From a virus, in the IMG/VR virus record IMGVR_UViG_3300043313_002018, positions 6,730-70,729 of that record: 64,000 nucleotides of DNA; one strand, 5' to 3'. A program made the position numbers and the translations under genes. Below the pieces are notes generated by a model. It had not been told where the DNA came from. It ran no database searches and saw nothing but the letters and a program-made list of their open reading frames with translations. Positions 8,873 to 63,088 of this stretch are shown here, piece after piece. Numbering within the stretch: the stretch's first letter is position 1; the number at the start of each line of letters is the position of its first letter.

Positions 8873-8873
8873 G

Positions 8874-10494: not shown

Positions 10495-10497
10495 CGC

Positions 10498-45938: not shown

Positions 45939-46661
45939 ATGGCAGGTATCAAGGATCTGAAGTTAGGCAAGGACGTGTTCGAGGCCAGGACCGCGGAGGC
46001 GCTGCCCGAGCAGATCGGCAGCCGCAAGCGCGCCCTCTACCCGGGCCCGTACCGCTTCAAGGCGCCCGTGGCCGCGAAGATCAACGAGTGCTTCGACACC
46101 TTCGAGGTGGAGATCGGCGGCAAGAAGGTCACCCGTGTGGTCGCGGTCCACCGCGACGGCGCCGAGCTGACCGTCATTCAGGCGCCGGCGAAGTACACCG
46201 AGCGCGTGGGGGACGCCTTCTCCACCCGCATCAGCAACGCCGAGCGCAAGCGCGGCAAAGGCGACGATGCCCCGATGGCGAGCGACATGGACTACATGCT
46301 CGCGGTATTACAGCCGAAGGGCACGCCGCTCCCGACCAGCAACCGCGGCTACCTCGAGGCGTACGCCAAAGTCGTGCCCGAGGCCGAGTTCGGCGCGGAT
46401 ATCGAGTGGAACTGGCGCTGCGACCCGAAGAAGGCCGCGCGCGTGCCGGACCCCGACAACGACGGCAAGACGATGGAGCTCAACGGCGAAGAGGGCCGGG
46501 AGAACCGCGCCGGCTGCAACACCAAGTACTACCAGAAGGACGTCCAGAAGGTGGACGCCGAGGGCAATGCCGACACGGCGGGCGAGTTCCCCCGCACGAT
46601 CGAGTGCCAGTGCGGCGCGATTCTGTTCGCCAACGAGAACCTGCAGAACTTCCGCAAGTAG
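45939..46661 (+). CDS. Putative single-stranded DNA-binding protein
   Basis: Position after nuclease and Sak4-like genes; PGPY.F start; terminal Cys cluster. Confidence 0.5.
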   Translation: MAGIKDLKLGKDVFEARTAEALPEQIGSRKRALYPGPYRFKAPVAAKINECFDTFEVEIGGKKVTRVVAVHRDGAELTVIQAPAKYTERVGDAFSTRISNAERKRGKGDDAPMASDMDYMLAVLQPKGTPLPTSNRGYLEAYAKVVPEAEFGADIEWNWRCDPKKAARVPDPDNDGKTMELNGEEGRENRAGCNTKYYQKDVQKVDAEGNADTAGEFPRTIECQCGAILFANENLQNFRK

Positions 46662-46778: not shown

Positions 46779-47975
46779 ATGGACCAGGACTGTCTCATCG
46801 TCGTGATCGGCGACTCGCCCCGGCTGCACACCGGACTGTCGCGCATCGCCCGCGATATCACCCAGCGCCTCTGGGCAGCGCGCGAGCGCCTGGGCATCCA
46901 GGTGGCACAGGTCGCCTGGGAACCGCGCGGCGTGGTCGCCCCGATGCCGCCATGGCCGCTGGTGACGTTTGCCGAGCTCGAGCAGGACTGGGGCGCGGAG
47001 CAGGTACTTGGGTATGTGAACGCGCTGACCGGGCAGCTCGGCGTCGATCCCAGCAAGGTCGTGCTGTTCACCATCTGGGACCCGGCCCGCTGCTTCGAGT
47101 ACCGGCACACCTGCGAGAACCTCTGGGGGTATTTCGCTGTCGACGGGCATAACCGCCATGGACGCTTCGGCGGGCCGGCGGCAGAAACGGTGGTGCGCTA
47201 CAAGCGGGTGCTGGCGTACACCGAGTACGGCGCGCAGGTGTTGCACGACACGATTGCGCATACGAACGGGCCCGGCCCTGTCATGCCCGTATCGTACCTC
47301 CCCCACGGCCACGACTGGGGCGCGGCCCAACGCGCGGACGCCATCGCCAACTGTCTGCCACCGACTGACGGCTGGCAGCTTGGGTGTGTCGCCACCAACC
47401 AACCCCGCAAGGACCTGGGGTTGTTCTTCGCCGTGCTCAGCATCCTGCGTGAGCAGGGCGAACCGGTACACGGCTGGCTGCACACCGACGCCCTGGTCAC
47501 CAGCGCCTGGTCGATCCCCGAGCTGCTCGAGGTCTACACCATCTCCCAAGACTGGTGCTACATCAGCGCCGGCCTGGCCGACGAGCGCTACCTGCAGGCC
47601 ATGTACGCGGGTTGTGCGGTGACGCTGGCACCGGGCCGCGGCGAGGGGTTCGGGTACCCGATCGTGGAGAGCTACGCCATGGGGCGGCCGGTGGTACATA
47701 CGAACTACGGCGGCGGCAAGGAGTTGACTCTTCCCGAGGGGCGTGTGGACTGTATCGCCTACGATACGGCGAATCCCTACGTCCTGCAGCGGCCGATTCT
47801 CCACCCGCAGGACGTCGCTATCCGCTGCCAACAGCTGGCCCATCAGATGCTCGCCGATCCGACCCGCGCCGCCTACTACGCCGGCACGGTCGCCAACCTC
47901 CACTGGGACCAGTTGTGGCCGCGGTGGGAAACATGGATTCGACAGGGGTTACGCGAGTTGAGGAGCACGCCATGA
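46779..47975 (+). CDS. Glycosyltransferase, GT-B (GT4-like)
   Basis: VATNQPRKD, GEGFGYPIVESYAMGRPVVHTNYGG (EX7E-type motif). Confidence 0.85.
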   Translation: MDQDCLIVVIGDSPRLHTGLSRIARDITQRLWAARERLGIQVAQVAWEPRGVVAPMPPWPLVTFAELEQDWGAEQVLGYVNALTGQLGVDPSKVVLFTIWDPARCFEYRHTCENLWGYFAVDGHNRHGRFGGPAAETVVRYKRVLAYTEYGAQVLHDTIAHTNGPGPVMPVSYLPHGHDWGAAQRADAIANCLPPTDGWQLGCVATNQPRKDLGLFFAVLSILREQGEPVHGWLHTDALVTSAWSIPELLEVYTISQDWCYISAGLADERYLQAMYAGCAVTLAPGRGEGFGYPIVESYAMGRPVVHTNYGGGKELTLPEGRVDCIAYDTANPYVLQRPILHPQDVAIRCQQLAHQMLADPTRAAYYAGTVANLHWDQLWPRWETWIRQGLRELRSTP

Positions 47976-48367
47976 GCGAGAGCAAGGTACGGGAGTTCAA
48001 AGCGGTGGAAGCGCGGGCACAGCTCCGCGATGCGACGCAGCGGCAGGTGCACGACGGCCCGCGCATCCTCGATGCCTTCGGGCGCGTGGTGCAGGTGGAC
48101 GACGGCATTCTGCTCGCGGAAACCTCGCCCATGTCGGTCGTATGGCGGGTGACGGCCCTGACGCCCGCCACCGAGCGCCAGCACCAAGGCGGCGTCTGGA
48201 TGGACCTGCAGGCGGGCATGCGCGTGCTGGTGGGGCCGAATGTGGCGAACCCGAGCGTGGTGCTGGGCATCCTGCGGAAAGAGAGCGCCGCGCCGGATGC
48301 GCCGGGGGCGGGGCAAACGGCTGGTGGGATCATTTTGTCGGACCCAGACGGGCTGAGTGAGCGATGA
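47972..48367 (+). CDS. Hypothetical protein
   Basis: GAGGAG RBS; ATGA coupling. Confidence 0.6.
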   Translation: MSESKVREFKAVEARAQLRDATQRQVHDGPRILDAFGRVVQVDDGILLAETSPMSVVWRVTALTPATERQHQGGVWMDLQAGMRVLVGPNVANPSVVLGILRKESAAPDAPGAGQTAGGIILSDPDGLSER

Positions 48368-49239
48368 AGGAACCTCGATTGGTCGTGGTGACGGCCACCG
48401 CCGACGCTAAGCGCTTCGGCGAATTCGCCCACGAGCTCGACTTCCACGCGGACGGCTCGGTGCCGATCGTGGCCGTGGCACAGAAGTTCGCCCGGTGGTT
48501 GCCACTCCGCAACGGCGTCATAGAGGGGCACAACGACTACCTGGGCGTGGTCCCGGCGTTCGCGCGGGGTTGCGAGATCGCCCTGCGTACGTACCCGCGT
48601 GCCGAGGTGATCGCCTGTCTGCACGATGATCTGCTAGTCAGCGAGCCCGACTGGGACCAGAAGCTCCTCGCCCACTTTGACACCCATCCCGACTGCGGCC
48701 TGGCCGGCTTCGGGGGCGCCTGGGGACTCGGGGACGAGCAGGCCGGGCAAGGCATCTATCGTCCGACCTGGCTGGTGCGTCGCGGGTTTATGTCGAACAT
48801 GCAGGACGCCGAGGCGCACGGCACACGCGTCACCGAACCGCGGAAGATCGCCTGCCTCGACGGGTTCTCGCAGGTGTTCCGGCGCACGTTCCTCCAAGGT
48901 CGTCACCACAACGGCGTCGGCCCGAACATTGCGTTCGACGGCACCCTCTTTAGCATCTTGCAGGACTGGGGCGTGATGCACCACGCCTACGACGCCGCCA
49001 CCGGCGCCTTCGCACGGTACCTGAGCTGGGACACCTGGCTCCTCCCCTTCGCCGTGCACCACAAGGGCGGGCAGACGGCCGTCGGGGACGCGCAGTACAA
49101 CGAGTGGGCGCGCACCCACGCGCAGAAGCTCCCCGACTCGACCTCCGTCGGCGATCAGGTGTTTTGGGAGCAGGCCCACAAGATCATCTGGCAGCGTCTC
49201 GGGCATTTGTTGCCCTTCGAGGTCGACCGCCTTGGGTAA
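48364..49239 (+). CDS. Glycosyltransferase, GT-A (GT2-like)
   Basis: IACLHDD....PDW......F...P..GLAG..G, ACLDG, HHAYD. Confidence 0.75.
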   Translation: MKEPRLVVVTATADAKRFGEFAHELDFHADGSVPIVAVAQKFARWLPLRNGVIEGHNDYLGVVPAFARGCEIALRTYPRAEVIACLHDDLLVSEPDWDQKLLAHFDTHPDCGLAGFGGAWGLGDEQAGQGIYRPTWLVRRGFMSNMQDAEAHGTRVTEPRKIACLDGFSQVFRRTFLQGRHHNGVGPNIAFDGTLFSILQDWGVMHHAYDAATGAFARYLSWDTWLLPFAVHHKGGQTAVGDAQYNEWARTHAQKLPDSTSVGDQVFWEQAHKIIWQRLGHLLPFEVDRLG

Positions 49240-49430
49240 ATCCATCGCGGAGCTCGACGCACTCCTCGGGGCGTCCCTCGACTCGACCGGGCCCGGTGCC
49301 AAGGACCGGCCCGAAGCCCGTACCTCAGTCGTCGCGGAGAAACTCCGTACCAGGCTTGCGAAGCGCGGTGCCCTGCCTCCCGACCCGGGCGCCACCGCCA
49401 ACACCGTGCAGGTCGGCGGAGTGACACGCT

Positions 49431-49883
49431 ATGGAGACGCGGGTGGTCCGGTGGTCGTGGTTAGGCGCGCTCGCTCGGAAGTACGGGAAGCCGCCGGCGC
49501 GGCCGGAAGTACCAGCGACCCCTTCGGGTGGAAGGTCCAACCCGGCAACGCCCTCGAGCCACCTCCCGGGCGACAACCCGCTGGGCTGGAGCGGGTACAC
49601 GGCCCGGGAACTGTTCCGCGTCGGCCGGCGCTTCCGCATTCTGCTCCCGCGGGAGGGGGAGTCACGCCGGCGGGCCCAGCTGACCGACACGTACACGATG
49701 GTCCAGCACGACCGGACGCAGGGGTACTTCCGGGGGGACCTGGACCCGGCGGGGGAGGACCTGCGGCGGTTTCCGTGGGCGACGTTCGAGCAGACGCTGG
49801 CGGAGGAGCGGGTACGGTGGCAGAACAGCCTACCCCGGGGGAGCACACCCTCCCACTTACGTTCCAGCACCTCGACGAGGTAG
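49431..49883 (+). CDS. Hypothetical protein nested in an alternative frame upstream of the helicase core
   Basis: GGAG RBS; globular-looking central part. Confidence 0.45.
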   Translation: METRVVRWSWLGALARKYGKPPARPEVPATPSGGRSNPATPSSHLPGDNPLGWSGYTARELFRVGRRFRILLPREGESRRRAQLTDTYTMVQHDRTQGYFRGDLDPAGEDLRRFPWATFEQTLAEERVRWQNSLPRGSTPSHLRSSTSTR

Positions 49884-51157
49884 AGGACAGCACGCCGGCG
49901 CCGCTCGCCGAGGGGGAGGCGCCCAACTGGCCCGGCCCGTTTCAGTTCGTCACCGGGCCCGCCGGCTGCGGGAAGACGTACCTCGCCCGCCAGTGGGGCC
50001 TGCACGACAAAGGCTTCCTGCTCTGCGCGACCACTGGCATCGCCGCGGTGAACCTGGGCGACGCGGTAACGGTACACAGCACGCTCAAGTTCTTCGACAC
50101 CGCCTCCCTCGAGGAGAACTTCGTCTCGGGCCACTTGCAGGCCCGCATGCGCAAGCTGCGCGCTAGCGGTATCACCCGCTACGGCATCGACGAGGTAAGC
50201 ATGATGCCGGCCCGGGTGCTCACCACCCTCACCCACGCGATCGAGGAGCTGAACTCCGACGCCGCCGTGGACATGGGGCACGAGCCGCAGATCGGCATCA
50301 CCCTGATCGGCGACTTCCTGCAGCTCCCGCCGGTCAAGGAGGAGTACGCCTTTCAATCCCCCGAGTGGCCGAAGTACGAAGCGCACATGCTCAAGCTCAG
50401 TACCACCTACCGCCAGACGGACCCCGATTTCATCCGGGCCCTGCGCGCGGTACGCCTGGGGCAGCCGGAGGAAGCGATGGACGTCCTCGGCCCGCACATT
50501 CAGCCGTCGCTGGACATGCGCTTCGACGGCACCACCATCCTCAGCAAGAACCTGCAGGTGGATCGCTTCAACAAGCTGCGCCACCAGGAGCTCGCCGGCG
50601 ACGTGCTCACCTACAAGAACACCATTACCGGCAAGCCGCTCCCCGAGTGGGAGAAGAATATCCCGATGTTCGTGGGACTGAAGCGCGGCGCCAAGGTGAT
50701 GATCCTGGCGAATAAGTACCTGGATATGGGCGGCGGCGAGCGGCTGCTGCTCTACGCGAACGGCGACACCGGCACCTTTGTGGACGGGGACCCGCGTACC
50801 AAGGTGGCCCACGTGCAGCTGAATCGCAGCGGGGAAGTCGTCCCGGTTACCTACAACATCCGGCAGAACCTGCTGCCGACCGGCGCCAAGGGGAAGAAGA
50901 AGGACCGGTATCAGGTGCTAGGTGAGGTCGAGTACATGCCGCTGCGGCTGGCGTACGCCTCGAGCGTACACAAATCCCAGGGCCTGACCCTCGATCAGGT
51001 GCAGGTCGATATTAGCGATCCGTTCTTTGCGGCGCCGGCGATGGTGTACGTGGCACTAAGCCGGGGGCGCTCGTTAGAGGGGCTGAGACTGGTGGGGAAC
51101 CCGGCGCTGCTGCTGAAGCGGTGCACGGTGGACCCATTGGTGGAGAGGTGGCGATGA
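49817..51157 (+). CDS. Pif1/RecD-like SF1B helicase
   Basis: FVTGPAGCGKT, DEVSMM, GDFLQLPPV, PLRLAYASSVHKSQGLTLD, YVALSR; likely GTG start 49817 after GGAGGAG (frame open back to 49232). Confidence 0.9.
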   Translation: MAEQPTPGEHTLPLTFQHLDEVEDSTPAPLAEGEAPNWPGPFQFVTGPAGCGKTYLARQWGLHDKGFLLCATTGIAAVNLGDAVTVHSTLKFFDTASLEENFVSGHLQARMRKLRASGITRYGIDEVSMMPARVLTTLTHAIEELNSDAAVDMGHEPQIGITLIGDFLQLPPVKEEYAFQSPEWPKYEAHMLKLSTTYRQTDPDFIRALRAVRLGQPEEAMDVLGPHIQPSLDMRFDGTTILSKNLQVDRFNKLRHQELAGDVLTYKNTITGKPLPEWEKNIPMFVGLKRGAKVMILANKYLDMGGGERLLLYANGDTGTFVDGDPRTKVAHVQLNRSGEVVPVTYNIRQNLLPTGAKGKKKDRYQVLGEVEYMPLRLAYASSVHKSQGLTLDQVQVDISDPFFAAPAMVYVALSRGRSLEGLRLVGNPALLLKRCTVDPLVERWR

Positions 51158-51999
51158 GTTTGCGATTGTGTCATCCGGGAAAGTTCGGGGATCTGCTCTG
51201 GGCCCTGCCCACCGCGCGCGCGCTGGCCGAACAGGCCGGCAAGGATGAGGAGTACGGCGGGGTAGAACTGCACCTGCCCAGCGCACTGCGCTCGATCAAA
51301 CCCCTGCTCGAGAAGCAGGGCGATTACCTTGCCAGCGTCGTACTGCATGACGACTGGCAGGTACAGGACACCGCGCCAGCCACACCGTTGCAGCCGCCCG
51401 GGTACACGATGCCCTCGCTCGGCTACAAGCAGTGGCCCGTACGCGAACTCCCCTACGAGGTCGCCTGGGAGCACGGCATGTACGAGAGTGGCCTGAGCGA
51501 CGCCCACTTCTTCCGCCCCTGGATTCACGTTCTCCCCTTGGACTATAACCTGGCCAGCGACCGGCAGCGCCTGGTCGTGCACTGGACCGATCGGTGGTTT
51601 GAGCTCAAACTGGGCATTCTGCGCGAGCTCCAGCGCGTCCTCGCCCGGGATGTGTACTGCCAGTGGATCGCGGCACCGGGATCGCGCATGGCCGAGGCCG
51701 GCGCGGTGCAGGTGGACTGGGTGGCCCTGGCGCGTACCCTGGCCGGCGCCGATGCCGTGCTGACCGACTGCAGCAGCGCGCACGTGCTGGCGGCCGCGGT
51801 GGGGGTGAAGACCATCCTGGTGGTCGAACCGGAAACGGATCGCCACCACTTCATCTTCTGGCCGGGGAGCACGGACACCTGGCAGCCGCGAGACACCGTG
51901 CTGGGGCGGGCGATCCGGCCGGTGCTGGGGAACGACGGGAAGCCCACCTTTGACTCGCGCCATACCATTGAGGAGGTCACCCGTGCCCTACGCCGCTGA
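51154..51999 (+). CDS. Glycosyltransferase, GT9 (heptosyltransferase)-like
   Basis: GKFGDLLWALPTARAL and ADAVLTDCSSAHVLAAAVG..T. Confidence 0.7.
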   Translation: MSLRLCHPGKFGDLLWALPTARALAEQAGKDEEYGGVELHLPSALRSIKPLLEKQGDYLASVVLHDDWQVQDTAPATPLQPPGYTMPSLGYKQWPVRELPYEVAWEHGMYESGLSDAHFFRPWIHVLPLDYNLASDRQRLVVHWTDRWFELKLGILRELQRVLARDVYCQWIAAPGSRMAEAGAVQVDWVALARTLAGADAVLTDCSSAHVLAAAVGVKTILVVEPETDRHHFIFWPGSTDTWQPRDTVLGRAIRPVLGNDGKPTFDSRHTIEEVTRALRR

Positions 52000-52429
52000 C
52001 ACCGAGGTCCCCGTCGATCGCTCCAAGCAGCAGATCGAGGCCATGCTCAAGCAGCGCGGCTGCGAGGGGTTTGCCTCTGCCTGGAGCTCGCAGGGCGACA
52101 CCATCGAGTTCATGTGGAAGGGCATGCGCATTCGCTTTGTGGTGCCACCGCTCGACCAGGAGAAGTACAAGCACGACGCCCAGGGCCGGGAACGCCGGGC
52201 GGAGGTGCTCGCCAAGCAGCTCGCCCAAGCGAACCGCGCACGCTGGCGCGGACTCTACCTAGTGGTGAAGGCCAAGCTCGAGGCGGTGGAGTCGGGCATC
52301 TCGATCTTCGAGGAGGAATTTCTGGCGTTCATCGTCGACCCTACCTCGAACAGCACGGTGGGGCAGGTACTGGTGCCGCGGCTGTTGAATGGTGGGAAGC
52401 TGCTGCTGACCGCTGGGAAGGAGACGTAG
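51983..52429 (+). CDS. Conserved phage hypothetical protein
   Basis: YA..T.V.V.RSK..IE..L...RARWR.L.LVVKAKLEAVESGI..FEEEFLA family. Confidence 0.75.
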   Translation: MPYAADTEVPVDRSKQQIEAMLKQRGCEGFASAWSSQGDTIEFMWKGMRIRFVVPPLDQEKYKHDAQGRERRAEVLAKQLAQANRARWRGLYLVVKAKLEAVESGISIFEEEFLAFIVDPTSNSTVGQVLVPRLLNGGKLLLTAGKET

Positions 52430-52431
52430 CG

Positions 52432-52908
52432 ATGGCTGATGACAAGTCTGCTCTCGAGGGCACGCGATCCCTCACAGACATACAAGAGGACTTGCGATGG
52501 ATTCGCTCGTTCATTGAGTATGCTCGCTACGAATTACAGCCGGGAGCACAGATGACTGGCGATCAGTTGCAATGCGAGGCTGACAAGGCCATCGCCAAGA
52601 TCGACGCCATCCTTGCGCTCTCCCGGCTCCCCGCAGACCAAGAGGAGGAGCGCGGTTGGCTGATCGAGAAATACCGTGATCGTAATGGTGACCCAATTCA
52701 ACCTGAATGGTGGGACGGTTCCAGTTTCAGAACAAATGCCGATCACGCGATGCGATTCAGCCGAGAAATAGACGGCAAACTCATGCTGTCGTTACTGCTC
52801 GGTAATACATTCGCGTTCGACTGCCGCGTCACGGAGCATCTATGGGAGCCAGCCCCGTCCCTCTCGTCACGGCTCCCCGTAGAGGAGCAGAAGGAATCCC
52901 GTGGGTAG
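52432..52908 (+). CDS. Hypothetical protein in a lower-GC patch
   Basis: GWLIE......WW.G..F.T.A..A.RF.R..D motif; AT-ending codons. Confidence 0.6.
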   Translation: MADDKSALEGTRSLTDIQEDLRWIRSFIEYARYELQPGAQMTGDQLQCEADKAIAKIDAILALSRLPADQEEERGWLIEKYRDRNGDPIQPEWWDGSSFRTNADHAMRFSREIDGKLMLSLLLGNTFAFDCRVTEHLWEPAPSLSSRLPVEEQKESRG

Positions 52909-53278
52909 ACTGTTAAATCCCGGCCTCGGCGAGCTCGCCGACCGCTACACCATCCTGCAGCTGAAGATCCTGCACGGCGACCCGACGAACGTCCAGCACT
53001 TCCACGCCGAGCAGGCGCAGGTGCTGATGACGATGGAGCGGCACGCCAGTCTGAACAGCGACCAGGTACGCAGCCTAATCGTCTACCTGCGCACGGTCAA
53101 CGGCGAACTGTGGACGCTCGAGGACCAGATGGCGGTGTACGCCAAGGCCCTGCTGGTCGACCCGCCGGTGGTCGCCGCGCTGGGCATGACGATCTGGAAG
53201 TTAAACCAGGAGCGCAACCAGCTCATTCAGCGGATCAACGTCGCCGCCGGCACGGATGCCGGCCCCGAGAAATTCTAG
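52901..53278 (+). CDS. DUF6165-like protein
   Basis: GELADR.TIL.LK...L..VN..LW.LED...LN..R..L...IN...G...EK. Confidence 0.65.
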   Translation: MGRLLNPGLGELADRYTILQLKILHGDPTNVQHFHAEQAQVLMTMERHASLNSDQVRSLIVYLRTVNGELWTLEDQMAVYAKALLVDPPVVAALGMTIWKLNQERNQLIQRINVAAGTDAGPEKF

Positions 53279-53308
53279 TTGACACGTGGTACGCACGTAC
53301 CATACATT
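53279..53308 (+). promoter_or_regulatory. Promoter TTGACA-N18-TACATT with the palindrome TGGTACG-CA-CGTACCA in the spacer
   Basis: Read directly; palindrome at 53287-53302. Confidence 0.7.
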
Positions 53309-53335
53309 CACCCCTTCCGAAAGGCTGAGGACCCC

Positions 53336-53605
53336 ATGAGCAAGGCACTTCCGACCCGCAAGGATGTATTCAGCAAGGACGGCCGGCGCTACGCCGGGTA
53401 CGCGCCCGCGACCGCCGGCGACGCGAACCTCCCGACGGGGGTACGCGGCACCTACAAGGGCCCGATCTACCGGCTGGAACGGCAGGTGCGCACCCGGCGC
53501 GGCTTCGGTACCCTGGTGCATGTGATCGTCTCGTTCACGCGCACCAAGGCCAAGGCCCACCAGATGGCGGCCGGCTGGGTGAAGATCGCCACGAAGGACC
53601 GGTAG
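53336..53605 (+). CDS. Small basic hypothetical protein
   Basis: ATG 53336 after AAGGCTGAG. Confidence 0.6.
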   Translation: MSKALPTRKDVFSKDGRRYAGYAPATAGDANLPTGVRGTYKGPIYRLERQVRTRRGFGTLVHVIVSFTRTKAKAHQMAAGWVKIATKDR

Positions 53606-53878
53606 GCCATGCTGGTGGCCCTGGTATCCAGCGTGCTCGAGTGCGGCGTCGCCGAGCACAGCGACATGCTCAAAACGGCGGTACGCACGGCCGACTCGTC
53701 GATCGAGTTTGTGACCGACGGCGCTTGGCTCGATCCGCAGCAGTTCTCGGGTACCTTCCCCGATGGCCGGGGATTTGACGCGGTACGGGGCGGACTTACC
53801 CATACACGCTTCGACGCCGCACTCGAGCACGCTGGATACCAGGGCCACCAGCATGGCCTACCGGTCCTTCGTGGCGAT
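53585..53878. repeat. Perfect 67-bp inverted repeat (53585-53651 / 53812-53878) with a 160-bp loop
   Basis: Base-by-base reverse complement; produces identical N-termini MLVALVSSVLECGV on both strands. Confidence 0.95.
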
Positions 53879-54706
53879 TTGGTGCACCTCAACTACCACC
53901 GCGGGCTGCATTCCCGCTGGACGCCGGAGGTGATCGCCAGCTACGGGCCCACCCCCTTCGTCATCACCTTCCACGACACGTTCGAGACGCAGCCGGACGA
54001 TCTAGCCTTCCGTCTCCTCGACACCTTCAACGTGCGCGGCATGGTGGTACACGAGCCCTGCGACCTCGTGAGCCATCCCAAGGTCCACTACTGGCGCCAG
54101 CCTTGCCCGCCGCCCCTCGGCCGCGGCTGGCCGGCGGATATCCCCAAAGTGTTCACTGCCCATGGCTGGCGCCCGACCCTCGGCACGCTCGGCTGGGACT
54201 TCCCGTGGAAGAACTACGACCTGCTGGCGGACGTCACCGCCGAGCGGGGCTGGAACCTGCGGATTGTCGGCAAGGTCGACGGGGACCGGCGGAAAGCGCT
54301 GGCCGCTCGCAACCCGAACATCTGGTTTGACGGCTACGTGGAGACGCCGGATGCGATCGCCAAGCTCAGTGCGTGCGACGCGACGGCGTTCCTGTACACC
54401 TGCGCCAATTCCGGCACGAGCGGGGCGATTCGCCAGGGCATTACGGCGGGCAAGCCACTGATCGCGGCAACCGGCTGCCGACAGTTCCGGGACTTGGAGG
54501 GTACCGCAGAGGGGTGGCCGATTCGGTGGATTGCGCCGAATGCCGATGCGCTCGCCATGACGCTGGACACCGGCGAGTACGGGTACAGCTTTGCCCTGAT
54601 CGGCCTCGCCCAGGACCTCAGCTGGGAGAAGGTTGGGCCGCAGTACGCCAAGCTGTATCGAGACGCGGTAGCGGATGCCGCGAGAAACGCCCGGCGCCTG
54701 CCATGA
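53609..54706 (+). CDS. Glycosyltransferase, GT-B-like, carrying the inverted-repeat insertion
   Basis: CGVAEH..ML, VHLNYH, VITFHD, GTLGWDFPWKNYD, SGAIRQGI.AGKPLI. Confidence 0.75.
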   Translation: MLVALVSSVLECGVAEHSDMLKTAVRTADSSIEFVTDGAWLDPQQFSGTFPDGRGFDAVRGGLTHTRFDAALEHAGYQGHQHGLPVLRGDLVHLNYHRGLHSRWTPEVIASYGPTPFVITFHDTFETQPDDLAFRLLDTFNVRGMVVHEPCDLVSHPKVHYWRQPCPPPLGRGWPADIPKVFTAHGWRPTLGTLGWDFPWKNYDLLADVTAERGWNLRIVGKVDGDRRKALAARNPNIWFDGYVETPDAIAKLSACDATAFLYTCANSGTSGAIRQGITAGKPLIAATGCRQFRDLEGTAEGWPIRWIAPNADALAMTLDTGEYGYSFALIGLAQDLSWEKVGPQYAKLYRDAVADAARNARRLP

Positions 54707-55611
54707 AGGTCCTCCTGATCGGCAACCTCTCCGACCGCCGCTGCGGCTTCCAGAACTTCACCGCGCAGATGCAGCACGCGCTGCACGCCCGTGGGGACGT
54801 GGAGCTGACCATGTACGACGGCACCTACTCAGCGGTGTACGCACGCCAGCAGCTCCCCGGCCGGCATTACGACGGCTTCTTCCCAGCGAACCTGGACGAG
54901 TTCAACGTCGTGCACCTCGTCTGGAACGCCATGACGATGAACCATTATGCCGGCGCTCCGTGGTCCCTGCTCGAGGGGATCGTGCTCCGCAGCTGGTGGG
55001 ACGGCGGCCCGAGCGACGCCTCCTGCCCCTTCGAGCCCCACATGGACGTCAAGTGGAGCGACTACCCGCGGGAGGGCTACGAGTACATGGCCTACCCAGT
55101 CCCCGACTGGGTGGACGACCTGCCGGCCACCGCTCCCACCTTTACCGTGGGTTGCAGCTCTGTGCGCGGCGATGGCGTTGCCAGCGTGCGGGAGGTGTGC
55201 CAGAAGCACGGCTGGGCCCTCAACCTGCCCGAGCCCGGCCAGTGGCTGTCGATCGAGGACGAAATCCGCCGCCTCGCGCGCAGCTCGGTCAATGTCTGCT
55301 GGTACAACACCCCGCCGCTCTGGCACAACCGGGCCAGCGCGCCCAGCATGCTGATCGCGGCCCTGCGCCCGCTGCTCATCAACGACGACCCGCTGGTGGC
55401 GCACCTGCAGGGGTACACCGGCGAGCAGGGTATCTACAAGGGCAGTAAGCACGGTTGGGACTACGGCCCGAATCTTGAGGAGTGCCTGATCGCGCTGGAC
55501 ATGCTGCACCGCACCGGCGGACTCTCGACGCCGCAGCGACCGCTTTCCGACCTGAGCTGGACCCGTGCCGCCCGGCAGTTCGTGCAGACGTGGGAGGCCG
55601 CCCGTGCGTAG
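54703..55611 (+). CDS. Glycosyltransferase, GT-B-like (divergent)
   Basis: MKVLLIG...CGF.NF...NVVHL.W...SAP...IAA.RPL......SW...A..F; paralogous layout to the upstream GT. Confidence 0.6.
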   Translation: MKVLLIGNLSDRRCGFQNFTAQMQHALHARGDVELTMYDGTYSAVYARQQLPGRHYDGFFPANLDEFNVVHLVWNAMTMNHYAGAPWSLLEGIVLRSWWDGGPSDASCPFEPHMDVKWSDYPREGYEYMAYPVPDWVDDLPATAPTFTVGCSSVRGDGVASVREVCQKHGWALNLPEPGQWLSIEDEIRRLARSSVNVCWYNTPPLWHNRASAPSMLIAALRPLLINDDPLVAHLQGYTGEQGIYKGSKHGWDYGPNLEECLIALDMLHRTGGLSTPQRPLSDLSWTRAARQFVQTWEAARA

Positions 55612-56524
55612 GGTCGCCGTTACCGGGACCACCGGGTTCCTCGGGAACGCGGTGGTGCGCGCGCTCGAAGAGGGCGGGTACACGGTCCTCGTGCTGGGCG
55701 GGGTCAACCTGCTGAACGAGCACGCGACCGAGGCGGCGATTGAACGCCTGCCGGCGCACACCCCCGTCATCCACCTCGCCTACCCCGGTGGCGACGGTAT
55801 CGGCGACGCGCTCAAGCACCCGGCCACGATCGCGCTCAACCTGATGCGCATGGACCTGAACGTCATTCAGGCGTGCGCGCGGCAGCACATCTCGAAGCTG
55901 GTCTGCATCGGCTCGGTCTGCGCGTACCCGGAACGCACCAACGTCCCGACCTGCGAGGAGATGCTCTGGAGCGGCTACCCCGAGCCGGTGAACGCCAGCT
56001 ACGGCATCGTCAAGCGCACCCAGCTCGCGCTACTGCAAGCATGCCGGGACGAGTTCAACCTGAACGGCATCCACCTGATCCTGCCGAACCTCTACGGCCC
56101 CGGCGACCGCACCAAGCACGTCATCCCTGCGCTGATCGGGCGCATGCGCAAGGCCGCCCGCGACGGCGACGGCGTGGTGACCATCTGGGGCCACGGGGAC
56201 GTCAGCCGCAGCTTCCTCTACATCGACGACGCCGCGGCCGGCATTGTCCGCGCGCTCGAGCACTACAATCGTCCGGCGCCACTTAACCTGGTGAACGCCG
56301 GCGAAACCACCATGTACGAGCTCGCCCGCATCCTGCAGGTCTACACCGACTACTACGGCGGCCTGGAGTGGGACACCACCCAACCCGTCGGCCACCGGCA
56401 GCGCAACTTTTCTCAGGTCAACATGGTGCACGCGCTCGACTGGCGTCCGCGGGTCGGGCTGGCCGACGGCCTGCAGCAAACGGTCCACTGGCACCAAACC
56501 GAATACCCCACGGAGTCCCTCTAA
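55604..56524 (+). CDS. fcl: GDP-L-fucose synthase-like NAD(P)-dependent epimerase/reductase
   Basis: VTG.TGFLG, GSVCAYP, EE.LW.GYPEP.N..YG..KR, NLYGPGD, HVIPALI, IWG.G..SR.FLY.DD. Confidence 0.8.
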   Translation: MRRVAVTGTTGFLGNAVVRALEEGGYTVLVLGGVNLLNEHATEAAIERLPAHTPVIHLAYPGGDGIGDALKHPATIALNLMRMDLNVIQACARQHISKLVCIGSVCAYPERTNVPTCEEMLWSGYPEPVNASYGIVKRTQLALLQACRDEFNLNGIHLILPNLYGPGDRTKHVIPALIGRMRKAARDGDGVVTIWGHGDVSRSFLYIDDAAAGIVRALEHYNRPAPLNLVNAGETTMYELARILQVYTDYYGGLEWDTTQPVGHRQRNFSQVNMVHALDWRPRVGLADGLQQTVHWHQTEYPTESL

Positions 56525-57735
56525 TGCCGTTGCTGAGTACCGAACTGTCCGCCTGCCGCGTCTGCGGCGACACCAGCGCCATCGAGCCAGTCCTCGAACT
56601 GGGTCCGCAGAAACTCAGCGGGTTCCCGGCCAACGCCGAGGAAGCCGCCGCGGTACACACCGTGCCGCTCGATCTGCTCCACTGCAGCAACTGCGGCACG
56701 GTGCAGCTCTCCCACACCGTCAACCCGGCGCTGTTGTTCCGCGACCAGTACTGGTACGCCTCCGGCATCAACGGCATGATGCGCGAGGAGCTGCGCAACG
56801 TGGTGCGCGAGGCCCGCGGCTGGGTCAAGGTCCGCGACGGCGACTGGGTGCTGGACATTGGCGCCAACGACGGCACCCTGTTGAATGCCTGGCGCGAGCA
56901 CGCCTGGGAGGGCCGGCCGATGCGGGTAGCGGTGGAACCCTCGCCGACGTTCCGCACGGCCCTCCACGACGTCAGCGACCTCTACATCCCGGACGTCTTC
57001 CCGACGCCACTGGACATGCAGTTCAAGGTCATCACCTCGATCGCCATGTTCTACGCCGTGCCGACGCCAGTGGAGTTCGCGCAGGCCATCCGCGAGCGCC
57101 TGACTCCCGACGGCGTGTGGATCGTCCAGATGCAGGACCTGCACAACATGGTGCAGGCGACGGCGTTCGACAACATCTGCCACGAGCACCTCGCCTACTA
57201 CAGCGTGAGCAGCTTCCACGAGGTGTGCACGCGGGCCGGGCTGAAGATTGTGAGCGTCCAACCCCGCGAGATCAACGGCGGCAGCCTCCGCTTTATCGTG
57301 CAGCGGCTCGAGGAGGGGGAATCGGCCGCGCGCCCGCCGATCCGCGAGTCCCGGATTGACTGGCCGCTCTTTGAGGAGACGCTGGTGCAGCGCTGCGCGT
57401 CCCTCGCCACCATGGTCGACGCCGCGCAGTCTCACGGCCACCAGGTCGACCTGCTCGGCGCCAGCACCAAGGGCAACACGCTCCTGCAGATCGCCGGCCT
57501 CGGCCCGCACAACATCCGCCAGGCCTGGGAGCGCCACCCGGATAAGATCGGCCGGCACACGATCACCGGCATCCCGATCGTCGGCGAGGAGCAGGGTCGC
57601 CTCTCCCCGCCCGACCTGCTGGTCTGCCCGATCTGGCAGTTCCGACGCGGGATCATCGAGCGCGAGCACGACTACCTGACGGCCGGCGGGCGGATTTACT
57701 TCCCGCTGCCGGACGGGGAGATGTTTTGCGGTTAA
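56524..57735 (+). CDS. NDP-hexose C-methyltransferase (Zn-binding, SAM and C-terminal domains)
   Basis: CRVCG, LDIGANDGTLL, FDNICHEHLAYYS, INGGSLR, GASTKGNTLLQ, K.G....TGIPI. Confidence 0.85.
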   Translation: MPLLSTELSACRVCGDTSAIEPVLELGPQKLSGFPANAEEAAAVHTVPLDLLHCSNCGTVQLSHTVNPALLFRDQYWYASGINGMMREELRNVVREARGWVKVRDGDWVLDIGANDGTLLNAWREHAWEGRPMRVAVEPSPTFRTALHDVSDLYIPDVFPTPLDMQFKVITSIAMFYAVPTPVEFAQAIRERLTPDGVWIVQMQDLHNMVQATAFDNICHEHLAYYSVSSFHEVCTRAGLKIVSVQPREINGGSLRFIVQRLEEGESAARPPIRESRIDWPLFEETLVQRCASLATMVDAAQSHGHQVDLLGASTKGNTLLQIAGLGPHNIRQAWERHPDKIGRHTITGIPIVGEEQGRLSPPDLLVCPIWQFRRGIIEREHDYLTAGGRIYFPLPDGEMFCG

Positions 57736-57755
57736 TGGCAGGAGGCTGAGGTCCC

Positions 57756-58232
57756 ATGCAGAAGTTCAAGAGTCATAAAATCGTCGAGGCCGCTCGCATC
57801 GATAGCATGCAGGTCACCGGCCGCACCCGCACCCTCAAGCTGGTGAACGCGCCGCCGGTCGAAGTCGACCAGACCTGGTGCGCCAAACACCAGCCGGAAG
57901 TCGGCGGCTACTACGTCGTGTACCCTGACCACTACACCAGCTACTCCCCGGCGAAGGCGTTCGAGGACGGCTACACGGTACTCGTGGATACCGCGCCGGC
58001 CGACCTCACGGCCAAGGCCGGCAGCGACCCGATCCTCGAGTTCTTCGCCTACGAGCACCTGCCGTATCACCTGCAGGAGATTTCCCGGCCGTTCGGGGAG
58101 CTGGTGATTCGGATGGTGGGGTTGCTACCGCGGAACGCCGAGCGCTCGGCCATGTTCCGGAAGATCCTCGAGGGCAAGGACTGCGCGGTGCGCGCGAAAC
58201 TGGCGAGTCCGCCGCCGACGGTGGTGCCATGA
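57756..58232 (+). CDS. Two-domain phage protein; C-terminal helical hairpin reminiscent of Acb2/Tad1-like proteins
   Basis: N-terminal K.VEA...GGYYVVY.D.Y.S.SP.KAFE.GY; C-terminal F.Y.HLP..LQ.IS.PF...LP...ERS...RK.LE.KD.AVRA. Confidence 0.55.
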   Translation: MQKFKSHKIVEAARIDSMQVTGRTRTLKLVNAPPVEVDQTWCAKHQPEVGGYYVVYPDHYTSYSPAKAFEDGYTVLVDTAPADLTAKAGSDPILEFFAYEHLPYHLQEISRPFGELVIRMVGLLPRNAERSAMFRKILEGKDCAVRAKLASPPPTVVP

Positions 58233-59038
58233 CTGGGCTCGGCCTCGTCATCATCCCGTTTATCGACTGCCCCAACGAGACGGCGGACGCCCTGCACGAT
58301 GCCAGCTACCAGCTGGGCGGGCAGGTCCAGATCCTCCTGATCGACCAAGGCAGCGCGGACCCGACTCTGGGCACCGCCGGACTGGCGGCAGCAGATCGTC
58401 GCATCCGCGTGTGGCGTCACGCCCCGCCGCTCCCCTCCCTCGCCGCCACCTGGAACGCCGCCCTCGACTACGCTTGGGAGCTCGGGCACGAGGACGCGAT
58501 GGTCTGGAACAACGACATTCGGGTACGCGCGGGCATGTACGCCGACCTGCGCCTGCTGGCCGCCGCCCGCGATCTGTGGTTCGTCTCCCCGGTCAACTGC
58601 CGTGACGGCGACCGCGCGAGCTGGCAGACGAACCCGGAGGATATTGGGGTCAGCCTCGGTGGCCCGGACTTCAGCTGCTTCCTCATCACGCGCGCCTGCC
58701 ATGAGAAGTACCGCTTCGACGAGCGCTTCCAACCCGCGTACCACGAGGACGGCGACTACCACCGCCGTATGTGGCTCGGCGGGGACGGGGCGAAGATCGC
58801 CGGCGCGAATCTCCCCTACCTGCACTACGGCTCGCGCACGATCAACCGGAGCAACGAGGCCGCGCATGCGTTCAGTCGGCAGTTTGAAGCCTGCCGGGAA
58901 CGCTACATCCAGAAGTGGGGCGGGGTGCCGCACCATGAGCGCAAAGTGCTGCCGGATTCCGCCGAGGACTTCAGTGGGGTGGGCACGCCTGGCGGGTACC
59001 TCACGATGCCGCCGGCTATCGGCATTCCGGGGCTCTGA
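58229..59038 (+). CDS. Glycosyltransferase, GT-A (GT2-like)
   Basis: IIP, LLIDQGS, A.TWN.AL, VWNND, FDERF.PAY.EDGDY.RRM. Confidence 0.8.
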   Translation: MTGLGLVIIPFIDCPNETADALHDASYQLGGQVQILLIDQGSADPTLGTAGLAAADRRIRVWRHAPPLPSLAATWNAALDYAWELGHEDAMVWNNDIRVRAGMYADLRLLAAARDLWFVSPVNCRDGDRASWQTNPEDIGVSLGGPDFSCFLITRACHEKYRFDERFQPAYHEDGDYHRRMWLGGDGAKIAGANLPYLHYGSRTINRSNEAAHAFSRQFEACRERYIQKWGGVPHHERKVLPDSAEDFSGVGTPGGYLTMPPAIGIPGL

Positions 59039-59687: not shown

Positions 59688-60047
59688 ATGCCCGTGCCCG
59701 GCGCTTCCGCCACCCTGCGCGATCGCATCCTCGGCAAGATCGTCATGCCGGGACCCGCCACCCCCTGCGCCACCTGGGTCGGCGCCTACAACGTCGACGG
59801 ACGCCGCAGCGGCCGGCGCAACCGCGGCCGGCGCCCGGTGATTAGCGCCGGGGTGTTCCGCGGCCGCACGCTCTACGTGGCGCCGACCTTGCTGCAGCTG
59901 GCCGGCATTGCCCCGTCCCATCCGGCCGCCGAGGCCGGCCACCGGTGCCCCTGTGGCGTCCGCCACGACGGGCTCTACTCCTGCGTCGACCTCGACCACC
60001 TGTGCTGGGTCGATCGCACGGAGAACGAAGCGGACAAGCGGCGATGA
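59688..60047 (+). CDS. HNH (His-Cys box-like) endonuclease
   Basis: C.TW.GA...G...AGHRC...CV.LDHL.W..R.EN. Confidence 0.7.
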   Translation: MPVPGASATLRDRILGKIVMPGPATPCATWVGAYNVDGRRSGRRNRGRRPVISAGVFRGRTLYVAPTLLQLAGIAPSHPAAEAGHRCPCGVRHDGLYSCVDLDHLCWVDRTENEADKRR

Positions 60048-63000
60048 GCGTCGGCAAGCACAAACGGCCGCCGGGCTGCTTCGCCTGCCCGCTGGAACGC
60101 GCCGGTGCGGGCTACGTCCCCGGTGAGGGCCCGGTCGGGGCGCCCATCACGCTCCTCGGCGAGTTCGCCGGCTACGACGAGATCGCCATTGGCCGCCCGC
60201 TGATCGGCGCCGCCGGCGGCTTGCTCTCGCGCCTGCTCCATCGCACTTTCCGCACGCGCGAGCAATTCCGCATCGAGAACGCGGTACGCTGCTGCCCGCC
60301 CGGGCACACGCTCAAAGGCGAGTGGGCCCAGGCTGCCGCGGACCATTGCAGCCAGTACTCGAACCCCGCGCTGGAACAGAGTTCTGTTATCGTCGCCATG
60401 GGCGAGCTCGCCATCCGCCAGGCGCTCAACCTCTGGGACCCCGACGTCAAGAAGCTGGTGGAGAACTTCCACGGCACCGTCACCGATCTCCCCGACGGCC
60501 GCCGCGTGGTCTGCACGTACCACCCGAACTTCCTCCGGGGCAATATGTCCCTGTTCGGCACCGTGGCGTACGACCTCAGCGTCGCGGAAGACGTCGCCAA
60601 CGGCACCTGGCAACGCGAACCGATCACGCCGATCATCGACCCCCATCCCGCATGGGTACGTACGTACATCGACCAGTACCGCGCGGCCATCCGCTCGGGC
60701 GAACCCATCGCCCTCGTCACCGACATTGAGACGCCCGACAAGGCGAAGGGCAAGGCCGAGGACGAGCTCGACGAATCGGACCAGAGCTTCCAGGTCGATC
60801 GGGTGAACTTCAGCTACCACGACGACGAAGGCATCACCGTGCCCTACGTCGGTCCCTACATTCCGCTGGTGCACGAGCTCATCGCGCTGGGCAACCTCCA
60901 CTACCTCTGGAACGGCGACTACGACCTGCGCCGGTTGCAGCGGCTCGGGGCGCAGTTCAGCGGCGAGATCTGGGACGGCATGTGGCTCTGGCACCACTAC
61001 ATGAGCGACGTCCCCAAGGGGCTGGGGTACGTGGCGCCGTTCTGCAGCACGCACGGCGCGTGGAAGCACAAATTTAGCAGCGAGCCGGGGCTGTACGCGG
61101 CGCTCGACGGCCCGCAGACGCGGCGCAGCGTCAACCGCACCGTGGAAGCGCTCGACCTGCGCGGCCAGTGGACCATGGCGCACCGGCACACGGTACGCCT
61201 GATGCAGAACGTCCTGAAGCCGGCGCAGGTGGTCGGGATCCAGGTGGACCGGCCGGCGCTCGATGCCTTTGAGGCCGACCTCGCGGCGAAGACCAAGATT
61301 CTCCTCGGGCAACTGCAGGAATGCGTCCCCGTGGCCGAGCGTCCCCTCACCGGCGGCACCGACCACCAGGGCTTCAAGAAGCGCCCGGAAGGCCCGCACC
61401 CGAACGCCACCACGCTCAAGAAGGACGGCGTGGCGAAGAAGGGCGCGGAAGACTGGGACCCGCTGAAGGTAGAGCTGTACCAGCGGCACGCGCGGCTGGT
61501 GGAGCTCCAGGTGAGCCGGGACCTGCGGGTGTGCGTGAGCTGCGGCCAGGAAGATGTGGTTGCCAAGCACCGCTGCGCCGACAAGAAACTGACGCCCTCG
61601 GTGCAGGTGCAAGCGCGCTCCGTCGTCCGCTACTTCTGGCAGGAGCCGTTCAACCCCGACTCCCCGAAGCAGAGTCTCTCCTACATCCTCGCCCGCAAGC
61701 ACAAGCCCGGCAAGAGCAAGCAGACCAAGCAACCCTCGGCCGACCGGGAATGCCTCACGCGCCTGCGGGCCACCACGAAGGATCCCTTCTATGCCACCTT
61801 GCTTGATTATCGCGGCGTCGCCAAGGTACGCGGTACATATGCGATTGGCGTACGTAAGCGACTCGACCACGGGAACCGGTTTCACCCCGTACCGACGCTC
61901 AAGCCCAGCACCCTACGTACCAGTTACGTCTCCCCCAACATCCAGAACGTCGTCGCCGATAAGGACTCGACGAAGACGCTGGCGGCGGGCTTCCGACGCT
62001 GTATCGTCGCCGCCCCGGACTGCTGGCTGGTGGAGCTGGATTACTCCGGGATCGAGGCCATGCAGCTGGCGTGGTTCGCCCGCGACCCGGTGCTACACCG
62101 GCTGGCACGCCTGGGCATCCATGCGTACCTAGCCAGCCACCTGCTGAAGCGGCCGGCGGACCTCAACTGGAGCGATGCCGACCTGCTCGAGTACTTCCAG
62201 GAGCTCAAGAAGGGTGAGCCCTTCATGTACAACCAGGCGAAACGTACCGTGCACGGCAACGGCTACGGCATGACCCCCCAGGGCATGTTTATGATGTTCC
62301 CCGACCTGTACAAAACCGTGAAGGACGCGCAGTACGTGCAGGACCTCTACTTCGCGGTGGCGCCGGCCGTGCCGCGGCTGCAGAACGAGATTCGCCTGCG
62401 CGCGCATGACCAGACCTACATCGGCGGGCCGAAGGATGCCAAGTTCCGCAGCATTCTCGACGACCCGAACGCGCACCCCTACGGCTACCGGCACGACTTC
62501 TACGACGTGGTGACGCTGACTCCCATTGGTCCCGAGAGCAAGCGCCGCATGGAGCAGGAACGCATCCCGATCATCGAGATGAACGGCCGGCTGTACGCGG
62601 CCAAGTGGGGCCCGGACAGCAAGCGCTGCCTCGCGTTCTACCCGCAGAGCACCGCCGCCGGCAACTTGAAAGAGGCCGCGTTGTACCTCTTTGATGAGCC
62701 CGACCACCCGAGCTACATCGGCGACGCCTACTTCGGCAAGACGCCGCTCCGGGCGCCGATTCACGACAGCTTGCTGTTAGAGGTGCCCGACAAGCAGCTC
62801 GATCGGGTGCTCGAAGCCGCCTTCCGCGAGATGGTCCGCCCGATCGAGGAGCAGCCGCTCCCGGCCGCGTGGAACCTCGGGCCGTATCTGACCATTGGCG
62901 TCGAGGGCAAGCGCGGCCGCAACTGGGAGGACATGGAAAAGGTAAAGAGTCCCACCCCGTCCCAGCTCGGGCTGGACGTGCTCAACTACGTGCCGGACAA

Positions 63001-63088
63001 TTCGCTCGCGTTCGACCGCAGTTACTTCCCGGCGGTCGAAGAGGAGGAGGAAGACGTGGAAGATCTCAGGGTGGTGGTCCGTGGCTAA
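60044..63088 (+). CDS. polA: Family A DNA polymerase with an N-terminal family-4 UDG-like domain and 3'-5' exonuclease
   Basis: UDG: CFAC, GE.AG.DE...GRP.IGAAG, RCCPP, YHP. Exonuclease: DIET, WNGDYD, YAALD. Polymerase: DYSGIE, AKRTVHGNGYG, PQS, IHDSLLLE. Confidence 0.9.
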   Translation: MSVGKHKRPPGCFACPLERAGAGYVPGEGPVGAPITLLGEFAGYDEIAIGRPLIGAAGGLLSRLLHRTFRTREQFRIENAVRCCPPGHTLKGEWAQAAADHCSQYSNPALEQSSVIVAMGELAIRQALNLWDPDVKKLVENFHGTVTDLPDGRRVVCTYHPNFLRGNMSLFGTVAYDLSVAEDVANGTWQREPITPIIDPHPAWVRTYIDQYRAAIRSGEPIALVTDIETPDKAKGKAEDELDESDQSFQVDRVNFSYHDDEGITVPYVGPYIPLVHELIALGNLHYLWNGDYDLRRLQRLGAQFSGEIWDGMWLWHHYMSDVPKGLGYVAPFCSTHGAWKHKFSSEPGLYAALDGPQTRRSVNRTVEALDLRGQWTMAHRHTVRLMQNVLKPAQVVGIQVDRPALDAFEADLAAKTKILLGQLQECVPVAERPLTGGTDHQGFKKRPEGPHPNATTLKKDGVAKKGAEDWDPLKVELYQRHARLVELQVSRDLRVCVSCGQEDVVAKHRCADKKLTPSVQVQARSVVRYFWQEPFNPDSPKQSLSYILARKHKPGKSKQTKQPSADRECLTRLRATTKDPFYATLLDYRGVAKVRGTYAIGVRKRLDHGNRFHPVPTLKPSTLRTSYVSPNIQNVVADKDSTKTLAAGFRRCIVAAPDCWLVELDYSGIEAMQLAWFARDPVLHRLARLGIHAYLASHLLKRPADLNWSDADLLEYFQELKKGEPFMYNQAKRTVHGNGYGMTPQGMFMMFPDLYKTVKDAQYVQDLYFAVAPAVPRLQNEIRLRAHDQTYIGGPKDAKFRSILDDPNAHPYGYRHDFYDVVTLTPIGPESKRRMEQERIPIIEMNGRLYAAKWGPDSKRCLAFYPQSTAAGNLKEAALYLFDEPDHPSYIGDAYFGKTPLRAPIHDSLLLEVPDKQLDRVLEAAFREMVRPIEEQPLPAAWNLGPYLTIGVEGKRGRNWEDMEKVKSPTPSQLGLDVLNYVPDNSLAFDRSYFPAVEEEEEDVEDLRVVVRG

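Follow-up and report, generated by a model that had tools for sequence, protein, structure and literature searches.

Phage-encoded glycosylation is known from few cases, namely the DNA of T-even phages, clusters that build glycans on 5-hydroxymethylcytosine (5hmC), the particles of mycobacteriophages, and seroconversion. Here, we examined a 64-kb stretch of a virus record (positions 6,730 to 70,729 of IMG/VR record IMGVR_UViG_3300043313_002018, hereafter the window), in which positions 46779-59038 hold six glycosyltransferase (GT) genes and sugar-tailoring genes interleaved with replication genes. The phage under study is designated G000, related genomes G001-G005, and related contigs or loci carry L-numbers. 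Scale and chemistry set this case apart: a large, uncultured lineage of soil phages of ~70 kb, a six-transferase pathway, a C-branched deoxysugar and a place in the replication operon. Our tentative reading is that soluble enzymes in the cytoplasm assemble an oligosaccharide that includes a C-methyl-deoxyhexose, and that its acceptor is not DNA but most likely the virion proteins.

Among described systems, the phage DNA glycan clusters are represented by the T-even alpha/beta-GT, the GT clusters of Pyle et al. linked to MT+5mYOX or to ThyS (10.1101/2023.12.21.572611) and RB69/DLP3, in which arabinosyl-5-hydroxycytosine is found (PMC13326640). As in G000, these systems have GT-A and GT-B enzymes beside a helicase and a polymerase, as well as an epimerase and secondary GTs, with folds borrowed from lipopolysaccharide (LPS) or teichoic-acid enzymes. 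Unlike them, G000 has neither a hydroxylated-pyrimidine enzyme nor genes for the deoxynucleoside triphosphate (dNTP) pool, it encodes six transferases while at most three sugars are known on DNA, and it has a C-methyl-sugar branch and retains restriction-site avoidance. Glycosylation of mycobacteriophage virions (Che8, Corndog, Myrna) was reportedly described by Freeman et al. in Cell Host Microbe in 2023. Those phages reportedly also encode soluble transferases outside the structural module and use particle proteins as acceptor, which is what we propose here, but they have two to four transferases versus six plus sugar-nucleotide tailoring in G000. The acceptor there reportedly has a C-terminal extension, whereas none is present on the G000 capsid protein (the G000 tail tube was not identified); the host phylum also differs, and a sequence relationship was not found.

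Giant viruses (chlorovirus, Megavirinae) have an autonomous glycosylation machinery with clade-specific sugar clusters. The resemblance to our cassette lies in sugar-nucleotide tailoring (4-keto-6-deoxy intermediates, aminotransferase, acetyltransferase, methyltransferase) combined with several transferases, in clade-specific swaps of chemistry, and in a shared DUF4254/DUF6165 helical domain, which is fused there to GT and GNAT. However, G000 is a 72-kb bacterial virus that leaves the dehydratase step to its host and has no known fibril or capsid acceptor. Seroconverting phages (GtrABC, O-acetyltransferases, prophage TarP) also use phage transferases, in their case altering a surface glycan, but they are temperate and rely on membrane GtrA/GtrB/GT-C proteins or on a single transferase, while G000 has six soluble transferases and no integrase or membrane protein. 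The module works like the known virus glycosylation machineries, yet it lacks what defines each of these named systems.

The original prediction listed six GT-like open reading frames (ORFs), a reductase, a C-methyltransferase and a DUF6165-like gene, interleaved with helicase and polymerase genes, and all of them were found in place: the nine sugar-related genes are open, plus-strand ORFs rich in G and C at third codon positions (GC3-rich), and they share one plus-strand operon with a PIF1-type helicase and a family A DNA polymerase fused to a uracil-DNA glycosylase domain (UDG-PolA). Four of the transferases are GT-B-fold proteins and two are of GT-A type. The first, a GT4-type GT-B glycosyltransferase at 46779..47975, matches Pfam Glyco_trans_1_4 with 34.4 bits (cut-off 27) and PHROG 2170 (5.6e-18) and has the canonical EX7E motif, GEGFGYPIVESYAMG; with both the defining domain and the motif in its sequence, it is a bona fide CAZy GT4-type enzyme. 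The second, a GT-A glycosyltransferase of the Glyco_tranf_2_5 type (GT2_5, 48364..49239), reaches 21.9 bits alone, though many of its 455 homologues carry PF13712, and its AlphaFold model, built from four sequences, is poor (pLDDT 46). The other GT-A enzyme, of GT2 type at 58229..59038, scores 17.6 bits alone, with PF00535 found in 3 of 6 orthologues (best 1.2e-6); it also matches PHROG 29879, a galactosyl transferase (8e-10), and its family profile matches GalT1 5hea (E 0.007).

The remaining three transferases belong to orphan families that resemble known ones by fold. The model of the 51154..51999 product in the ESM Atlas has a TM of 0.71 to a GT9 cluster, and the protein has conserved GT9-like motifs at both ends, PGKFGDLLWALPT and DCSAxHVLAxAxGxP. 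CAZy GT9 is recognised by a Glyco_transf_9 match together with GD..P and DSG.HLA motifs, but neither this nor any other Pfam family matched the protein across six orthologues at E<=1, and the best PDB match of its family profile was a pyruvyl transferase (E 0.029); therefore, we call it a GT9-like fold by its model and not a proven GT9 member. GT-B1 (53609..54706) and GT-B2 (54703..55611) have GT4-like folds in their Atlas models, with TM values of 0.77 to GT4 clusters and 0.78-0.79 to GT4-type GT-B clusters, respectively. Neither had a Pfam match or a PDB sequence match, the EX7E motif is replaced in both (NSGTSGAIR, RASAPSM), and paralogy between the two was not detectable by hhalign. In these two proteins, only the fold resembles GT4. 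PDB searches with single sequences of the three orphan GT-B proteins returned nothing and profile searches returned only noise. All six transferases are acidic (pI 5.6-6.1), and no transmembrane segment is present in any cassette protein, the top 19-residue hydropathy being 1.74.

Sugar tailoring would be performed by the products of two adjoining genes. The first (55604..56524, plus strand) encodes an epimerase/reductase of the short-chain dehydrogenase/reductase (SDR) type that resembles GDP-L-fucose synthase (Epimerase, 4.9e-40); it matches the NCBIfam GDP-fucose synthase family at 2e-52 with 178.6 bits against an equivalog cut-off of 500, which places it by sequence as an extended SDR related to Fcl but below Fcl equivalog level. 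The ATG of the second gene (56524..57735, plus strand) overlaps the reductase stop codon, and its product has the TylC3/TcaB9 architecture of NDP-hexose C-methyltransferases (Methyltransf_13 PF08421, 3e-12; Methyltransf_23 PF13489, 3.7e-14; Methyltransf_14 PF08484, 5e-21). A Zn-binding N-domain, with four N-terminal Cys invariant across 7 orthologues, is followed by an S-adenosylmethionine (SAM) domain and Methyltransf_14, so that an NDP-hexose C-3 methyltransferase activity is predicted. Enzymes of this architecture act on NDP-4-keto-6-deoxyhexoses, and the DegT enzymes encoded in sister cassettes draw on intermediates of this class too. Since no 4,6-dehydratase is encoded, the NDP-4-keto-6-deoxyhexose must be supplied by the host. 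The C-methyltransferase would take this host-made intermediate and methylate its C-3, and the C-4 keto group would then be reduced by the 55604 reductase, or by an SDR of the host or another of the phage, to give an activated 3-C-methyl-6-deoxyhexose. We infer that G000 diverts a host intermediate to 3-C-methyl-6-deoxyhexose while its relatives divert it to an amino sugar.

The presence of six transferases implies an oligosaccharide, and together with the tailoring enzymes it supports the earlier proposal of a multi-enzyme pathway over a single-sugar transferase. If each transferase added one sugar, a short hetero-oligosaccharide would be produced in the cytoplasm, with the base probably laid by the semi-core GT4 and GT2_5 pair and the variable cassette elaborating it.

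The ninth gene encodes a DUF4254/DUF6165 four-helix protein (52901..53278, plus strand), which scores 26.9 bits for DUF4254 (cut-off 27) and whose model (pLDDT 88.6) has a TM of 0.86 to a viral DUF6165 cluster; precomputed Pfam annotation lists PF14063 for it and for most of its homologues. It lies immediately upstream of GT-B1 in every cassette-bearing genome, and elsewhere its domain is fused to GT9 and FkbM methyltransferase in bacteria and to GT and GNAT in giant viruses. A complex prediction for this protein with the GT9-like protein scored 0.00, which is no evidence either way. A role as MazG-like dNTP pyrophosphatase would have pointed to DNA, but it was rejected because the model shows a simple bundle of four helices and does not match such an enzyme.

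The cassette is found well beyond G000. G001, a 76-kb IMG/VR genome, repeats its genes and their order at 33-58% identity, with GT-B2 as the best-conserved protein (58%), and the order is kept at 31-58% identity in G001, L038, L039, L040/41, L042 and L043. Five further contigs read with gene calls share the order GT4 - GT2_5 - helicase - GT9-like - DUF4254 - GT-B1 - [RmlD-like SDR] - GT-B2 - [Fcl-like SDR] - [small methyltransferase] - C-methyltransferase - [Dam] - GT2 - UDG-PolA. Co-occurrence in related genomes had been named as a check in the original prediction, and a chance arrangement is excluded by conserved gene order in at least seven divergent genomes. Next to the GT2_5-type homologues mentioned above, there are 97 homologue clusters for GT-B2 (31-81% identity, 0 with a Pfam domain) and 595 for the DUF4254 protein, and many of the contigs bearing them are 67-76 kb long, while an IMG/VR profile scan returned G001 as the only further cassette-bearing genome. 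By these sequence comparisons, the cassette is an old, lineage-wide module common to hundreds of related phages and not peculiar to G000. The suggestion of an undescribed system stood insofar as we found no description of the cassette in the literature, but not as a property of this phage by itself.

The content of the module varies across the lineage. GT4 is semi-core, being present also in G001, G002, G004 and G005, and the C-methyltransferase is found in every type-I cassette, while the Fcl-like reductase is accessory and missing in G001 and L038. In G002, G005 and L010, the interval from helicase to polymerase encodes a DegT-type sugar aminotransferase, a hexapeptide acyltransferase and a CAP59-like transferase; in G004 it encodes a GT2-containing protein, and in one other contig FkbM methyltransferases, an Asp_Arg_Hydrox hydroxylase and a faint sulfotransferase. 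G001 has an FkbM/RfbT-like methyltransferase and a hydroxylase as extras, and G003 has no transferase in the interval but a tyrosine integrase (L007:7500-8792) where others carry sugar genes. DNA methyltransferases (Dam, N6_N4) are interspersed among the cassette genes of relatives. In the core-gene tree, G001 is sister to G003, G002, G004 and G005 group together, and G000 lies outside; therefore, the type-I cassette spans the root of the sample and was lost or replaced in sublineages.

Regarding the acceptor, one or more proteins of the phage particle would receive the glycan ahead of assembly, in the manner of mycobacteriophages and giant viruses, and the swaps of cassette chemistry among relatives would diversify the sugar coat of the particle. 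Virion proteins are ranked first because of the apparently virulent lifestyle of the phage and its soluble, self-contained pathway. Particle glycosylation is known in giant viruses, and the fusion of the DUF4254/DUF6165 domain to giant-virus GT and GNAT proteins and to bacterial GT9 and FkbM proteins supports such an acceptor. Further support comes from the structural neighbours of the GT9-like protein, among them many TPR fusions, an arrangement typical of enzymes that glycosylate proteins, and from the fibre-like genes that are common to G000 and G001, both with the cassette, and missing in G002-G005, a co-occurrence that runs against the core phylogeny. Fibre-like genes of the window at 7271-8968, 9166-12399, 13272-13736 and 15213-15818 encode candidate acceptors.

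Several observations weigh against virion proteins as acceptor. The major capsid protein can be aligned over its full length with that of relatives, whether or not they carry the cassette, and has no Ser/Thr-rich acceptor extension, and the cassette sits in the early/replication operon, away from the structural genes. The tail proteins, previously described as very Ser/Thr-rich, are only moderately so (27% and 31% in two). In addition, three of the four GT-B proteins rest on predicted folds without recognisable catalytic motifs, and the GT9-like fold, as well as the LpxO-family hydroxylase and RfbT-like methyltransferase of relatives, points to LPS-type chemistry.

This last point belongs to a less likely but serious alternative, remodelling of the host envelope, in which the soluble transferases would work from the cytoplasmic side of the membrane and modify host lipid-linked intermediates (lipid A-core, or repeat units linked to undecaprenyl pyrophosphate, Und-PP). 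Soluble GT4, GT2 and GT9-type enzymes can act on such host-made intermediates, the fold of the GT9-like protein is that of the LPS heptosyltransferase family, and deoxysugars of the C-methyl, amino and O-methyl kinds are characteristic of O-antigens. The Asp_Arg_Hydrox (LpxO-family) hydroxylase and FkbM/RfbT-like methyltransferases of relatives keep this alternative alive, together with their CAP59-like transferase and the fact that cassette type tracks fibre type in G000 and G001. If it were true, the altered surface glycan would block superinfection or keep progeny off debris. However, no initiating phosphoglycosyl transferase, flippase, polymerase, Gtr-type membrane protein or hydrophobic segment was found, and the GT9-like family lacks a Pfam Glyco_transf_9 match in the six orthologues. 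Known seroconverting phages are temperate, whereas G000, G001, G002 and G004 show no integrase or sign of lysogeny, and classical seroconversion is a poor fit. The original preference for virion glycosylation or host LPS remodelling over DNA was borne out as far as DNA is concerned, and of the other two we place virion glycosylation tentatively ahead.

Concerning DNA, two published routes lead to glycosylated phage DNA, one through a thymidylate-synthase homologue and one through a C5-methyltransferase with a 5mYOX oxygenase (10.1101/2023.12.21.572611; PMC13326640). PF00303 (ThyS), PF12851 (Tet_JBP) and PF00145 (C5-methyltransferase) had no match at E<=1 in G000, G001, G002, G004 and G005, in a search where the PF00303 and PF00145 controls scored above the cut-off and the PF12851 control fell below it in all control genomes; by CheckV, three of these five genomes are 100% complete and G002 is 93%. 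The reported lack of a thymidylate-synthase-like gene thus extends to the complete G000 genome and to four relatives. A Pfam census of the other 42 G000 proteins, structural and other, returned only GH108, Laminin_G_3 and JAB at E<=0.001, and no dNTP-pool or nucleotide-metabolism family. GT-B1 and GT-B2 also had no Pfam match to known DNA-GT families (T4 alpha-glucosyltransferase, AGT, PF11440; BGT) and no PDB sequence or profile match.

Restriction-site avoidance was undiminished as well. The mean log2 ratio of observed to expected counts (O/E) for 6-bp palindromes was -0.48 in G000, -0.88 in G001 and -0.80 in the cassette-less G003, with non-palindromes at about -0.03; TCGCGA, for example, occurred 2 times against 22 expected in G000, and AGGCCT 0 times against 23 in G001. 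The 6-bp palindromes are as avoided with the cassette as in G003, a result that broad shielding of the DNA would not predict, although the test is soft, as modification limited to certain motifs would escape it. Avoidance was also observed in G004 (GCCGGC, 3 observed vs 85 expected; GTCGAC, 0 vs 58), and the set of avoided palindromes differs for each of G000-G005, which suggests different host restriction repertoires.

The missing ThyS, TET/JBP and C5-methyltransferase matches, together with the undiminished avoidance, make DNA glycosylation by the cassette unlikely, in agreement with the earlier disfavouring of DNA hypermodification. A glycan on phage DNA or other nucleic acid could still be placed by a route that needs neither a ThyS homologue nor a TET/JBP oxygenase, which we regard as improbable. 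The cassette genes are co-transcribed with helicase and polymerase, Dam and N6_N4 methyltransferases lie among the cassette genes of relatives, and language-model features set GT-B1 and GT-B2 near the clusters of T4 AGT; we treat these three observations as leads, the last of them not amounting to a test. Published clusters build up to trisaccharides on 5hmC, and 65% of the related GT contigs have no neighbouring base-modifying enzyme (10.1101/2023.12.21.572611). A cupin-type hydroxylase adjoins the polymerase in G001 and L039, but it is missing from G000, L038 and L040, and the acidic nature of all six transferases, as well as their number, which exceeds any known DNA glycan, also speaks against DNA. 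A third way into DNA glycosylation, by which the lineage would place a branched-sugar oligosaccharide on DNA or other nucleic acid and vary it from one cassette to the next, is a distinctly improbable extension of this idea.

The early-operon position, which weighs against virion proteins, would suit glycosylation of a host protein, a small molecule or an immune signal for takeover or counter-defence, or the making of a free glycoconjugate. The turnover of the cassette is like that of counter-defence loci, and a gene of the Acb2/Tad1-hairpin (anti-CBASS/Thoeris sponge) family lies within the cassette region of L042 (L042:1245-1466). However, six transferases with sugar tailoring far exceed the known needs of takeover glycosylation and are without precedent there, and we consider such an acceptor rather improbable, as with nucleic acid.

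Another possibility, that the cassette is decaying or non-functional cargo, is suggested by the unrecognisable catalytic motifs of the three GT-B proteins and by an odd feature of GT-B1. A perfect inverted repeat of 67 bp occupies 53585..53878 (arms 53585-53651 and 53812-53878), its left arm covering the start of GT-B1 and its right arm being an in-frame inverted copy of that start, which gives GT-B1 a 33-residue insert that is missing from six orthologues in the alignment. In the best-matching of four soil runs compared, contigs stop at 53614 and restart at 53849, that is, at both arms. Such breaks are the expected behaviour of a de Bruijn graph at a repeat of this kind and fit two origins alike, a very recent inversion-duplication and a chimera made in assembly. 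Nevertheless, all the genes are intact and GC3-rich, and their order and invariant residues persist at 31-58% identity throughout a deep tree with no frameshifts or stops seen in orthologues, which leaves decay very unlikely indeed.

The neighbours of the cassette genes are part of the replication module. The PIF1-like SF1 helicase (49232..51157, plus strand; PF05970 8.8e-13, AAA_30) is a core replication gene with orthologues in relatives and splits the transferase set; its domains begin at residue 235, so its start is uncertain. UDG-PolA (59945..63088, plus strand; PF03167 5.4e-11, PF00476 6.1e-27) is a core gene that flanks the end of the set and closes the module, and in L005, L006, L007 and L008 the tblastn match to it is interrupted by an additional 0.8-2.3 kb, suggestive of inteins or of inserted homing endonucleases. 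Two small plus-strand genes within the interval are shared with cassette-less relatives, 51950..52429 (PHROG 17260, 1.8e-33), present also in G003, and 57756..58232 (PHROG 1761, 3.5e-23). Upstream, the core proteins encoded at 41745-43124, 44053-45867 and 45939-46661 have no Pfam or PHROG match and are also found in relatives without the cassette. They were considered as base-modifying enzymes and rejected; by eye, the first resembles a nuclease and has a conserved Cys cluster, the second looks like an ATPase with a Walker-A motif (GSGKT) and a tail rich in Pro and Ala, and the third like a 4-Cys protein.

The source record is a single contig of 71,802 bp with a GC content of 66% and 69-bp identical ends; therefore, the assembly is complete and circularly closed. 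Structural genes occupy 1-33 kb on the minus strand, and early and replication genes 34-63 kb on the plus strand. Several soil metagenome runs contain near-identical DNA, the best-matching ones dating from 2019, and the virus is an uncultured soil phage. Neither megablast nor tblastn found a near relative among GenBank phages, and tblastn with GT-B1 and GT4 gave no close match in the same set. The terminase, portal and capsid proteins (1-33000, minus strand) were all missed by Pfam, which places the lineage very far from described phages. An ORF on the minus strand spans the circular closure point (window 63386-64000 and the genome ends, L126:2-5059 and L127:316-1995) and apparently encodes a single giant protein of virion type (~2,200 residues) that has a Prok-JAB domain. 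Nearby minus-strand proteins of virion type in L039 and L042, possible counterparts of this ORF product, carry an SLT lytic transglycosylase domain. The host is probably a Gram-negative soil bacterium. The C-methyltransferase closest to ours in species genomes (44% identity) lies on L045 (CAVSEC010000014.1, 48.6 kb), a phage-like contig binned into a Gemmatimonadales metagenome-assembled genome, and this binning is a weak hint of a host in Gemmatimonadota.

Examination of this lineage shows that relatives swap chemistry in place, with amino or acetamido sugars, O-methylation and possibly sulfation. This pattern suggests a diversifying sugar identity of a phage component or of a component of the infected cell, and no known system explains it. 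The C-methyltransferase and reductase pair represents a compact source of a rare activated sugar, and the three GT-B families and their DUF4254/DUF6165 partner have no characterised member. The identity of the acceptor would give them a function, and it would tell if phages other than actinophages commonly bear glycan coats on their virions.

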